This document shows, in pieces, positions 16,792 through 64,000 of a DNA stretch of 64,000 bases. The stretch comes from Arenicellales bacterium (GTDB taxonomy: Bacteria > Pseudomonadota > Gammaproteobacteria > Arenicellales > JAJDZL01). The stretch is taken from the NCBI GenBank assembly GCA_965200545.1, contig CBDAUJ010000002.1:1224850-1288849 (forward strand), read 5' to 3'. Each line of letters starts with the position of its first letter. Positions within the stretch are counted from its first letter, which is position 1. The notes under the pieces were generated by a model. That model was not told the origin of the DNA. It did no database searches and saw nothing but the letters and a program-made list of their open reading frames with translations. Made by a program: the position numbers and the translations under genes.

Positions 16792-16878
16792 GCCGAGGTG
16801 GCGAAATTGGCAGACGCGCTAGCTTCAGGTGCTAGTGGAGGAAACTCCGTGGAGGTTCAAGTCCTCTCCTCGGCACCA
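16792..16878 (+). tRNA. tRNA-Leu (anticodon CAG), type II with long variable arm and encoded CCA
   Basis: Acceptor stem GCCGAGG/CCTCGGC. Anticodon stem CTAGC/GCTAG with loop TTCAGGT. Variable arm TGGAGGAAACTCCGT. T-loop TTCAAGT. 3' end ACCA. Confidence 0.93.
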
Positions 16879-61611: not shown

Positions 61612-61819
61612 CGAACTGGCTGATCGGCAAACAGTACTGCGACTTGGCGCCAGGGCCGTGGCATTTGCGGCGGCCGTGAGAAAACGCTTTGTGCTCGTTG
61701 ATTTTTGTTCTCAACAAGTCTGTATTGATGTATTGATTAATGATCAGCGGCATTCAGCACTGAGACAGAGTGCCATGGGAGGACTGGCATCATTCGCAAA
61801 TGATCACCGACAGCACAGA

Positions 61820-62383
61820 CTAAAATATAGCGATATTATGTTCTCGAAGTTTCCGCGAAAGCTCTGCCGAAGGTATTATTTCAACATCATGCATTACATC
61901 TTTTGAAAAAAGACTCCTCAGAATACCGAAAAATTTTTCCTTCAAATTGTCAGCAAATCTAAAGTCTTCGTCTGATATATCGCTGATGACGAGCCAGAAA
62001 TTATAGGTTTTATCGCGAATTTGGCTGGCTACGCTGCGGTACTTTGCAGAAAAGCGGCATAAAACCAGCATTGATGCATAAACTTTCAGCTCATTTTCCT
62101 TGAGAAAGAAATCCTCAATCAATTTTTCGCGCACTTCCGATTCCAGAAAATCGTATTCATGACTCATGTTTCGATACCAGTCAGACAACCTTGTTTCTTC
62201 GATCAAGTAGATAAATCCATCACTGACAAGAAAATAATCGCAGCTATGGCAACCGCCCAGATCTGCATCATTTCTCATATTCATGTTCGGTGATTCGCCA
62301 TCAATTTTATATGCCTTATAGCACTCACTCAGTGGATGCCCGGCAACCAATATTGTCTCCAGATAACGATTGAGTCGGCTCAT
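61820..62383 (-). CDS. 187-aa hypothetical protein, candidate effector (possible PD-(D/E)xK-like nuclease) coupled to the upstream ATPase
   Basis: The ATG at 62383 forms an ATGA overlap with the ATPase stop. Segment GGCHSCDYFLVSDGFIYLIEETRL (D49 ... E63-x-R65). The DNA is AT-richer than the flanks. Confidence 0.6.
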   Translation of the reverse strand: MSRLNRYLETILVAGHPLSECYKAYKIDGESPNMNMRNDADLGGCHSCDYFLVSDGFIYLIEETRLSDWYRNMSHEYDFLESEVREKLIEDFFLKENELKVYASMLVLCRFSAKYRSVASQIRDKTYNFWLVISDISDEDFRFADNLKEKFFGILRSLFSKDVMHDVEIIPSAELSRKLREHNIAIF

Positions 62384-63744
62384 ATGCCCTTTAGGTACAA
62401 TTCAGCGAACGGGTCAGTCAGATTCTCCTTGATCTGGCCCAGATTTTTTTCAAAATCATCACTAGAATCTGCGACTGACTGGGAAAAATGATTAAGAGCC
62501 ACTAGTTTTTCATCATCCGGGTTCCTCTTTATTCTGACTTCCAGCCACTTTAGAAAATCCACACTGTGTGTGGCGACCACGACATGAACACCTGCCTGTG
62601 CCAATTCAAATAGGCACTCAGCCATCAGCACTTGCCACCGAGGATGTAAATGAGCCTCGGGCTCATCTATAAATAAGAAAGATCTTTTGTCCAGCAGTTT
62701 ACGCTCAATAAGGAGCGTCAAAAATCCAATATTGGCGATTCCGGTTGCTGTTTGAGCTATGGGCACCTTGTGATTGCGGCTGTCTTCATGAAAAGACAAT
62801 TCACCGTCTTTGGAAACCGTTAACTTCCCGCCAAAATTTCCAACAAGCTTTTGATATACATCAGGAAAATCGATATTTCCGGTAAACTCATACTTCAGAG
62901 TTTGACACAAATCTTCAAAATGCTGGGGGATGCCAGCAAGTGGCCGCCGCCTAGTCCGCAATCTGTGATGCCTATACTGAATGTCTTCTAAAGGTGTCTT
63001 TAATTTCCAATAGATGGGTGATTCCAAATAAATGAGTGACGAAAAGCGCGACGCATGCTCATGCCATGCTTCCTCTAACTCAAGACGAATAGTTTCCTCT
63101 AAGGCCTCATCTGAAAAAATGAACTCTCCGACCTTGTCTATCTTGATGCTCATCGGAATGGATTCTTTTTCTGACAGCTGTGAGATTGTCGCCGCTTGAA
63201 AGTTTCCTAGGATGTTGCGCCTGAGTTCCAGCTTCATGCCGTTTGACATCAATTCAGCTTCATCGACTCTGTGGAGCGATTCGGTTAGTTCGTTTAATTT
63301 ATCCGCTAGATCATCTCCTAAATCACTCAGTCTATCATCCTCTGCAAATTTATTTTTTATTGCATCGAATCTGCTGTGAACTACATTGAGCTGGTTTATA
63401 AAATCTGAAATAAAAACCTTCAATTCATCCTTATTCCCTGATGGGCAGCTGTCTGCAAGATGAGTCAGTTTTTTAAATTCTTCTTGCAAAGTGGGCTCAT
63501 GAGAATCACTCTTATAAAATCGTCGAAAATACATCATATCCATGAGGTTTGTGACAGGATCAATAAGCCTCGACAAAGATGCCTCCGCGTGACTGGCTCT
63601 CAATGCATTGAGAATTGAATAAAGAATTTTGGATGCGAAACTCTTGCCTGAATTATTCTCTCCAGCGAAAACAGTAAACCGATTGATGCTGACTGTGGCA
63701 TCCTGCAATTTGCCTAAATTTTTAATTTCTACGTTGAATTTCAT
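62380..63744 (-). CDS. ABC-type / AAA_15-AAA_21-like ATPase (OLD/PtuA/AriA-like class)
   Basis: 454-aa ORF. Walker A FAGENNSGKS (K34), a long helical insertion, Walker B plus D-loop SFLFIDEPEAHLHP, and H-loop VVATHS. Confidence 0.8.
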   Translation of the reverse strand: MKFNVEIKNLGKLQDATVSINRFTVFAGENNSGKSFASKILYSILNALRASHAEASLSRLIDPVTNLMDMMYFRRFYKSDSHEPTLQEEFKKLTHLADSCPSGNKDELKVFISDFINQLNVVHSRFDAIKNKFAEDDRLSDLGDDLADKLNELTESLHRVDEAELMSNGMKLELRRNILGNFQAATISQLSEKESIPMSIKIDKVGEFIFSDEALEETIRLELEEAWHEHASRFSSLIYLESPIYWKLKTPLEDIQYRHHRLRTRRRPLAGIPQHFEDLCQTLKYEFTGNIDFPDVYQKLVGNFGGKLTVSKDGELSFHEDSRNHKVPIAQTATGIANIGFLTLLIERKLLDKRSFLFIDEPEAHLHPRWQVLMAECLFELAQAGVHVVVATHSVDFLKWLEVRIKRNPDDEKLVALNHFSQSVADSSDDFEKNLGQIKENLTDPFAELYLKGI

Positions 63745-63747
63745 TAA

Positions 63748-63852
63748 TTACTTGAGTGAGCTTGACAGGACTTGGAGGAAGTTCGAGTATTGGAACCTCG
63801 AAAGCTTGAAGCACTTTTTTCGTGGCAGATTAATGTTCAGTTGAACTTTCAT
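63748..63852 (-). CDS. 34-aa micro-ORF ending 3 nt before the ATPase start
   Basis: MKVQLNINLPRKKCFKLSRFQYSNFLQVLSSSLK. Its TAA stop is separated from the ATPase ATG by TTA. No family is recognised. Confidence 0.25.
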   Translation of the reverse strand: MKVQLNINLPRKKCFKLSRFQYSNFLQVLSSSLK

Positions 63853-64000
63853 TTCGGGGCGATTGCGCTTTAGGGAGCCTATTTTACATTAGGTTGCAAA
63901 GGAGGGTTGTCAGGTCACCGCAAGCGGCTATATTGGGAGCGCAAAATGGGCGAGCGGGCTGAATCTGTGTTCCGGCAGCGCCGAGCTGGAATAAGCAGCC

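Follow-up and report, generated by a model that had tools for sequence, protein, structure and literature searches.

The closest described counterparts of the gene pair analyzed here are HEC-02 and PD-T4-4, two experimentally validated defenses with an ATPase-nuclease architecture (bioRxiv 10.1101/2024.01.29.577857; PMC9519451). HEC-02 comes from Dickeya dianthicola, where it is found within Hma systems, and consists of an ATP-binding cassette (ABC) ATPase together with a NERD-like PD-(D/E)xK protein (bioRxiv 10.1101/2024.01.29.577857), both genes being required for defense (Payne et al., bioRxiv 10.1101/2024.01.29.577857). PD-T4-4, from E. coli ECOR58, was described as a two-gene "ATPase, nuclease" defense (Vassallo et al., PMC9519451) and has been classed as a P-loop NTPase plus a PD-(D/E)xK protein, which form higher-order complexes and, as long as a trigger is lacking, show no activity on DNA in vitro (bioRxiv 10.1101/2025.07.10.664194). 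Here, we describe two coupled genes, coding for an ABC-type ATPase and a small partner protein, at the end of a 64-kb stretch of the genome of an Arenicellales bacterium (the window, meaning the whole stretch that was analyzed, within which all positions are counted). Judging from the sequence, the pair has the architecture of a known class, but its family escapes all current models, and we think it probable that it is a horizontally acquired module of the "ABC ATPase plus nuclease" class, directed against phages or mobile elements.

The two genes span positions 61820 to 63744 (1,925 nucleotides [nt] for both) and lie, like a micro-ORF that precedes them, on the minus strand (Table 1). They form an islet of about 2 kb between two unrelated genes, with an opposite-strand gene for a Xan_ur_permease (NCS2) protein on the left and, on the right, a minus-strand open reading frame (ORF) that has its stop at 63884 and continues past the end of the window. 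Transcription of the islet opposes the prevailing plus orientation of the window, and its composition is also different, with a guanine-plus-cytosine (GC) content of 0.39 to 0.45 over positions 61800 to 63800 versus 0.49 to 0.59 in the left flank (0.413 for the pair itself versus 0.516 for the flank). The original prediction for this DNA had described such a lower-GC islet between an NCS2 permease and a GC-richer window end, carrying an ATPase and a 187-amino-acid (aa) ORF joined by an ATGA overlap. The ORF calls and the GC profile agree with this description, and the GC-richer end agrees with the ORF on the right. Scans of the islet for promoters, terminators, and repeats gave nothing above the shuffled expectation, and flanking repeats were not found. 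The Rfam scan of the window had a single match, an unrelated tRNA gene at 16792..16875 (+), and a search of E. coli genomes with the region found no match.

The pair behaves as a unit. We fetched 62 loci, 8 via individual homologues and 54 by scanning a single genome for each species, 57 of the 62 being nonredundant. The ATPase gene is directly upstream of the partner gene in all 62 and is full length in 60 (52 of the 54 scan loci), with decayed ATPase copies in L056 and L060. Start and stop codons overlap by 4 nt in 38 of the 46 loci in which this could be assessed (ATGA in 32 and GTGA in 6), and the pairwise identities of the ATPases and of their partners are correlated (r = 0.67). No third conserved gene appeared when the five neighbors on each side were clustered over the nonredundant loci. 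The co-occurrence across genomes that the original prediction proposed to test is found, with adjacent genes and a full-length ATPase in nearly all loci, and its worry that upstream components could be missing beyond the window end is largely answered by the lack of a conserved third gene. It had also proposed a three-part operon, of which the coupled ATPase and partner stand and the micro-ORF does not.

The closest relative of the window copy is L063, with an ATPase 77% identical to that of the window. DNA homology between them covers 62035..63820 at 83.5% and ends at 63820; the roughly 76 nt before the ATPase ATG are about 85% identical, and the sequences further upstream are unrelated. The micro-ORF exists as an ORF in the window, but at this same level of identity its frame in L063 has a TAA stop, and in loci embedded in restriction-modification (R-M) operons, described below, there is no room for it, as the ATPase gene begins only 31 to 37 nt after the gene upstream of it. 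For both reasons, it is not a conserved component. The conserved stretch itself is possibly a promoter, operator, or leader, and contains TTCGAG-N9-CTCGAA, of which L063 retains only a part. About 1.6 kb upstream of its pair, L063 has a HigB-like toxin/HTH_3 antitoxin pair (L063:5968-6548).

The ATPase is recognized by Pfam as AAA_15 (E = 4.6e-23; 82.9 bits against a cut-off of 32.1) and AAA_21 (E = 1.2e-16; 62.1 bits against a cut-off of 27). Its nucleotide-binding motifs are invariant at their key positions in an alignment of 56 homologues with identities of 41 to 77% (Table 1). In the AlphaFold2 (AF2) model (predicted local distance difference test score [pLDDT], 83; predicted template modeling score [pTM], 0.84), the ABC head is split by five insert helices, which DSSP places at residues 52-75, 83-98, 105-135, 137-159, and 162-182. 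Foldseek with this model gave PtuA, from Septu and a retron, as the first match (E of ~1e-6), followed by structural maintenance of chromosomes (SMC)/cohesin heads and GajA, with a probability of 1.00; the sequence profile gave marginal matches only against the PDB. The top PADLOC models were HEC-02A (4e-28, C-terminal part only), generic AriA (4e-26), PD-T4-4_A (1e-25), and NsnB, and no NCBIfam model matched at its cut-off. PHROG family phrog_14430, annotated as function unknown, matches the ATPase over its full length (E = 3.8e-71). Its members may come from prophage predictions, and no close ATPase relative was found in the INPHARED phage records. With these motifs and a modeled ABC head carrying an insert, the protein is, by sequence and predicted structure, an ABC (AAA_15/AAA_21) defense-type ATPase. 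This confirms what had been originally proposed for it, that is, the Walker A, Walker B, and ATHS motifs, a helical insertion (at aa 52 to 182 in the model), and the AAA_15/AAA_21 class.

The partner protein is matched by no model of Pfam, NCBIfam, or PADLOC, and its sole match in PHROGs is partial and not significant (17 bits; E = 0.008). In 5.8 billion proteins, a word-indexed search picked up only 12 relatives, and an exhaustive profile search brought this to 246 representatives at an E value of ≤1e-3; one relative is listed at NCBI as "hypothetical protein." The partner family is real but uncommon and lacks annotation. The AF2 model is confident (pLDDT, 88; pTM, 0.86), and Foldseek searches with it against the PDB and BFVD found nothing at an E value of ≤0.001. 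The weak hints (E of 0.03 to 0.7) were the cleavage domains of FokI and Nt.BspD6I, both at E values of 0.5 to 0.7, and "endonucleases" of Pithovirus. A profile of 103 partner sequences had no match among PDB sequences. The original prediction had said that the partner did not look like an HNH, Toprim/DUF4435, or UvrD protein, and indeed no existing family model recognizes it; the profile and structure searches that it proposed succeeded for the ATPase (AAA_15/AAA_21 with a PtuA-like fold) and gave no significant family or structure match for the partner.

Conservation within the 103 sequences provides a better view of the partner. D28, D49, E62, and K100 are each kept in 102 of them, with C48 and Y50 close behind and Y102 in 98, and position 64 is a threonine in 81 (including the protein of the window), a lysine in 10, and a serine in 8. 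In the model, D49 opens the strand of residues 50 to 54, and E62-x-T64 falls within the next strand of the hairpin (residues 57 to 64), which is followed by helices, one of them with K100, and then by two more strands. D49, E62, T64, and K100 would presumably cluster in space. A PD-(D/E)xK core is alpha-beta-beta-beta-alpha-beta, with D opening beta-2 and (D/E)xK in beta-3. The beta-beta-beta-alpha-beta order of elements here, with D49 opening the second strand, E62-x-(T/K/S)64 in the third, and K100 on the helix after it, would fit such a core in which the lysine of the ExK motif has usually been lost. As a test of membership in this superfamily, the result is divided, since the order fits, but lysine occupies position 64 in only 10 of the 103 sequences and no Foldseek match is significant. 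A threonine at the ExK position makes possible either an altered catalysis via K100 or a nonnucleolytic role. We also considered an RloB identity for the partner and rejected it, as a single member of the 103 matched, at an E value of 0.022, which we take as chance level. One protein of the family, P0143 (445 aa), joins the N-terminal half of the ATPase (to about aa 250, without the Walker B motif) to a full partner domain; it may derive from a deletion or else be an artifact of assembly.

Compared to this pair, HEC-02 has the same gene order, with the ATPase first, the small partner second, and a 4-nt overlap (Table S2 of Payne et al.). Both also occur inside a larger methylase/helicase immune operon, which is Hma for HEC-02 and, at part of its loci, Type III R-M for the present pair. 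At the protein level, the match of the ATPase to the PADLOC HEC-02A model covers only profile positions 157 to 316 of 338, and the N-terminal half and the insert differ; HEC-02A, with 342 aa, is too short for a 130-aa insert and aligns only with the C-terminal third of the ATPase. In hhalign, the ATPase profile aligns with HEC-02A at a probability of 98% over 117 C-terminal columns with 30% identity, including the signature, Walker B, and H-loop. HEC-02B (169 aa) has an invariant ExK lysine, whereas the partner family mostly has threonine there. The window partner does not match the HEC-02B models at an E value of ≤1, so PADLOC would not call the system. HEC-02B is nevertheless the commonest PADLOC family among the 103 partner relatives, with nine member-model hits to five models (the best at 1.5e-4 and 7.5e-4), one of them collinear over profile positions 39 to 165 of 169. 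An hhalign comparison of the partner with a 42-sequence HEC-02B alignment gave a probability of 4% (P = 0.01; 1 of 150 column shuffles scored as high), in a register that places D49, E62, T64, and K100 of the partner on D43, E56, K58, and K78 of HEC-02B, all four invariant in the latter. With one HEC-02B sequence alone, the comparison settled on a spurious FWL register and was discarded. The similarity is weak but convergent and suggests, at the sequence level, a distant kinship below family membership.

PD-T4-4 is almost identical in total size (1,973 nt for its operon versus 1,925 nt here), and its PD-T4-4_A models, of 460 to 474 positions, are close in length to the 454-aa ATPase and match it at 1.2e-25 over part of the profile. 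Compared through the PADLOC models, PD-T4-4_B matches neither the window partner nor any of the 103 relatives, so the pair does not belong to this system either; the complexes and latency of PD-T4-4 would fit a latent sensor-effector model. Further removed, we found full-length ATPase relatives (23 to 24% identity) on one plasmid each from B. cereus and K. pneumoniae and in a P2-like phage of Vibrio, each followed by a 209- to 222-aa protein with a canonical acid-x-K motif, D...IExK in both plasmids and D...DxK in the phage. The hidden Markov model (HMM) of the partner matches the B. cereus plasmid protein collinearly (3 of 2,000 shuffles scored as high). The K. pneumoniae plasmid, pMB6975_2 (L065, NZ_CP103616.1:3382-5347, with a 222-aa D...IExK protein), is a 5.9-kb MOBP mobilizable plasmid that otherwise codes only for replication, mobilization, and a RelE/ParE toxin-antitoxin (TA) system, and the pair takes up about one-third of it. 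A search of complete E. coli genomes with this plasmid pair, as a route to PD-T4-4, found no DNA match. In Vibrio phage 1.202.O (Peduoviridae; L066, MG592573.1:4187-6218), the ATPase relative and its 209-aa companion lie between the CI repressor and the integrase, a position that in P2-like phages is a known defense hotspot. Taken together, these tests, none of them decisive alone, make a PD-(D/E)xK/NERD-like origin the best reading of the partner, and a likely one. The pairing as such is not of a new kind, as pairs of an ABC ATPase with a PD-(D/E)xK/NERD nuclease were already described and validated in HEC-02 and PD-T4-4. The PADLOC check gave a mixed outcome, with the ATPase matching HEC-02A, AriA, and PD-T4-4_A models, the partner matching none, and no named system fitting the pair.

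Other systems with ABC ATPases resemble the pair in part. The ATPase is collinear over its full length with the generic AriA model of PARIS (4e-26), with which it shares a two-gene sensor-effector logic. However, AriB is a Toprim/DUF4435 protein, and the partner lacks a DUF4435/Toprim match and a conserved DxD/E...DxD and has another strand order, so the pair is not PARIS. In structure, the ATPase model comes closest to the PtuA entries of Septu and retron (8sux, 8eea, and 8ee4; E of 1e-6), with template modeling scores of only ~0.35, and the PtuA sequence models match weakly (9e-14). PtuB is an HNH protein, and the partner has neither an HNH match in Pfam or PADLOC nor conserved H-N-H or Cys4 columns, which sets it apart from Septu. 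Gabija can be discarded because the ATPase ends after the ABC head, without a Toprim domain, and no helicase gene is adjacent. AbiL/RloA-RloB and PrrC are likewise modules with an ABC ATPase inside R-M operons; AbiLi models match the ATPase weakly (3e-12), and RloA-RloB is found in Type I R-M loci, whereas the host operon of the present pair is of Type III. Their concept of a "back-up when restriction is blocked" is applicable to the pair.

At 17 to 20 of the 57 nonredundant loci, the pair is inside or beside a same-strand Type III R-M operon. In the embedded layout, it follows mod (874 aa; PADLOC MTase_III, 1.7e-183) with a gap of 31 to 37 nt and precedes res (986 aa; ResIII, and REase_III at 2.9e-20) with a gap of -1 to 8 nt. 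The same slot also carries AriAB-like genes in fused form, a PtuA-like gene accompanied by a 114-aa partner, and a pair made of an AlbA_2/HATPase_c_4 gene and a ParA-like gene. The interval between mod and res behaves as an insertion slot for defense genes. Variable same-strand modules between mod and res are found in L013, L029, L035, L040, and L046 (at positions of ~4 to 14 kb in each locus), all in metagenome-assembled genomes. The AlbA_2 (Schlafen-like) plus HATPase_c_4 protein (394 to 409 aa), followed by a ParA-like AAA_31 ATPase (326 to 331 aa), stands beside the system in 10 loci, and no named system was found for it beyond weak pAgo-associated models. Outside the R-M-linked loci, housekeeping genes prevail among the nearest neighbors, which also include a few genes for transposases, methylases, and further AAA_15 ATPases. 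The defense-island context looked for in the original prediction thus exists at about one-third of the loci and is replaced by housekeeping neighbors at about two-thirds.

Table 1. Positions of the features of the ATPase-partner pair and of the AlbA_2/ParA-like genes found beside it at other loci.
Feature	Position	Strand	Basis or remark
ABC-type ATPase, 454 aa	62380..63744	-	ORF; AAA_15/AAA_21
Partner protein, 187 aa	61820..62383	-	ORF; proposed divergent PD-(D/E)xK/NERD-like effector
ATGA start/stop overlap (partner ATG over ATPase TGA)	62380..62383	-	Translational coupling
Micro-ORF, 34 aa	63748..63852	-	ORF call
Conserved 5' region (possible leader/promoter)	63745..63820	-	Upstream end of DNA homology to L063
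Walker A GENNSGKS, aa 28-35	63640..63663	-	G28, N30, G33, K34, and S35 invariant in 56 homologues
Helical insert of ~130 aa (aa 52-182) in ABC head	63199..63591	-	DSSP on AF2 model
Walker B/D-loop FIDEPEAHLH, aa 358-367	62644..62673	-	All ten residues invariant in 56 homologues
H-loop ATHS, aa 391-394	62563..62574	-	Invariant in 56 homologues
Putative active-site hairpin C45-x-x-C48-D49-Y-F...L60-I-E62-E-T64-R-L66	62186..62251	-	Conservation in 103 sequences and AF2 model
Conserved helix E96-N-x-L-K100-V-Y-G/A-S-x-L-V-L-C-R110	62054..62098	-	Conservation in 103 sequences
AlbA_2/ParA-like pair	L035:10752-12931		
AlbA_2/ParA-like pair	L009:11213-13395		
AlbA_2/ParA-like pair	L013:10604-12825		
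AlbA_2/ParA-like pair	L041:6354-8524		
AlbA_2/ParA-like pair	L045:10910-13086		
AlbA_2/ParA-like pair	L062:6218-8424		
AlbA_2/ParA-like fusion (one 740-aa protein)	L049:10791-13013		

This context raises the alternative that survives best, in which the pair would serve Type III R-M as an accessory or guard instead of being an autonomous system, monitoring Mod/Res or sensing anti-restriction proteins, and solitary copies would be orphaned remnants. Precedents exist in PrrC, which guards EcoprrI, and PARIS, which senses Ocr (Payne et al., bioRxiv 10.1101/2024.01.29.577857), and the PARIS-like fused genes occupy the same slot as the pair. The near-zero-gap, same-strand embedding between mod and res recurs in several phyla, L019, L025, L048, and L049 keep just a C-terminal mod remnant directly upstream, and the R-M-linked copies cluster in the ATPase tree, where 14 of the 16 have an R-M-linked nearest neighbor. 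However, about two-thirds of the loci have no R-M gene within five genes, and the window copy, which groups in the tree with solitary Arenicellales copies, is itself solitary, with no mod or res gene, or remnant of either, in the 64 kb of the window, upstream of the pair included. Solitary clades (Latescibacterota, Nitrospirales, and Arenicellales) hold both ORFs intact, which argues for autonomous function, and we regard a purely accessory role as unlikely.

The pair is rare and looks horizontally acquired. It was found at only 54 loci among 185,579 species genomes, and its GC content is below that of the flanks in 51 of 51 loci (mean of 0.429 versus 0.535; P = 5e-10). Hosts were found in at least seven phyla, among them Latescibacterota, Nitrospirota, Acidobacteriota, Verrucomicrobiota, Chloroflexota, Thermodesulfobacteriota, and several gammaproteobacterial orders. 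Many of them either bear sponge-derived names (Poriferihabitaceae, Porifericomitaceae, Spongiihabitans, and Porisulfidus) or come from lineages typical of sponge microbiomes; Poriferihabitaceae has been tied to a sponge metagenome (PMC12859430). That the hosts are mostly sponge associated is an informed reading of these lineage names and not a count.

A compact coupled operon with foreign composition and patchy distribution could also be a selfish, TA-like addiction module, in which the partner would be the toxin and the ATPase its neutralizer and which would stabilize the islet or the R-M cassette. The TA genes (HigB/HTH_3) near the closest relative and the Pfam label of AAA_21, "putative AbiEii toxin, Type IV TA system," go along with this idea. 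On the other hand, neither protein resembles known toxin or antitoxin families in Pfam, NCBIfam, or PADLOC, the antitoxin-first order is indistinguishable from that of sensor-effector defenses (many of them TA-like), and the defense-gene neighborhood fits immunity better, so that we find an addiction module decidedly improbable. The idea of a lineage-specific housekeeping ATPase-nuclease for DNA repair or chromosome maintenance (RecF/RecN/SbcCD-like), to which the SMC/cohesin-like ATPase head, the housekeeping neighbors of many loci, and the conserved synteny in Latescibacterota could be ascribed, is very improbable in view of a GC content about 10 points under that of the host flanks at every locus compared, the rarity of the pair among species genomes, the decayed copies (L056 and L060), and the R-M embedding.

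Judging from the R-M context, the neighbors, and the signature of transfer, defense is the most probable function of the pair, and a mobile defense module of the ATPase-plus-nuclease class the reading that we prefer. Several observations weigh against it. The catalytic lysine is replaced by threonine in the partner of the window and in most members of its family, so the domain might be inactive or use other chemistry. Statistically, a homology between the partner and PD-(D/E)xK/NERD proteins is not secured, with an hhalign probability of 4%, E values of individual HMM hits from 1e-4 to 1, and no match for it either by Foldseek or by the sequence profile against the PDB. The partner was not found in phage, plasmid, and IMG/VR collections. 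Lastly, at about two-thirds of the loci, the window included, the surroundings are ordinary housekeeping genes and not a defense island.

As a defense module, the pair can be pictured by analogy with described systems. Translational coupling of the genes makes it probable that the two proteins are produced together and associate in a complex, as PARIS, Septu, Gabija, and PD-T4-4 would suggest. In analogy to these systems and to HEC-02, the ATPase, with its 130-aa insert, would be the sensor or regulator and would hold the partner inactive. A signal from the phage, which may be an anti-restriction protein or an intermediate of replication, would shift the ATP-dependent state of the ATPase, which would then release or activate the partner. 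The activated partner would cut nucleic acid (DNA or tRNA/RNA) and so halt the infection, possibly through abortive infection. We infer the nuclease activity, the formation of a complex, the trigger, and the defense phenotype of the pair. The trigger of PARIS is anti-restriction proteins (PMC11464382), which provides a plausible analogy for the R-M-embedded copies, and the embedding between mod and res beside PARIS-like genes suggests that, in at least one clade, the pair may step in as a back-up once restriction has been blocked, much as PrrC or PARIS does. A bolder version of this proposal would make the pair a new defense family largely confined to sponge microbiomes, carried as Type III R-M cargo over at least seven phyla and acting as a restriction guard, with an effector that lacks the canonical lysine (ExT), works through K100 or in a nonnucleolytic way, and forms a branch mechanistically distinct from HEC-02; in this full form, we consider it speculative and rather unlikely.

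If the preferred reading of a mobile ATPase-plus-nuclease defense is confirmed, the pair would add a family to this type of immunity that has been missed by detection tools, as PADLOC 2.0, Pfam, and NCBIfam have no model for the partner. Type III R-M operons would then be hosts of embedded second-line defenses, which has already been described of Hma, BREX, DISARM, and Type I R-M systems. The threonine that takes the place of lysine in the putative active site provides a test case for how a PD-(D/E)xK site may drift with its function kept, and the pair is a clonable candidate from sponge symbionts, a community rich in defense genes but experimentally unexplored.

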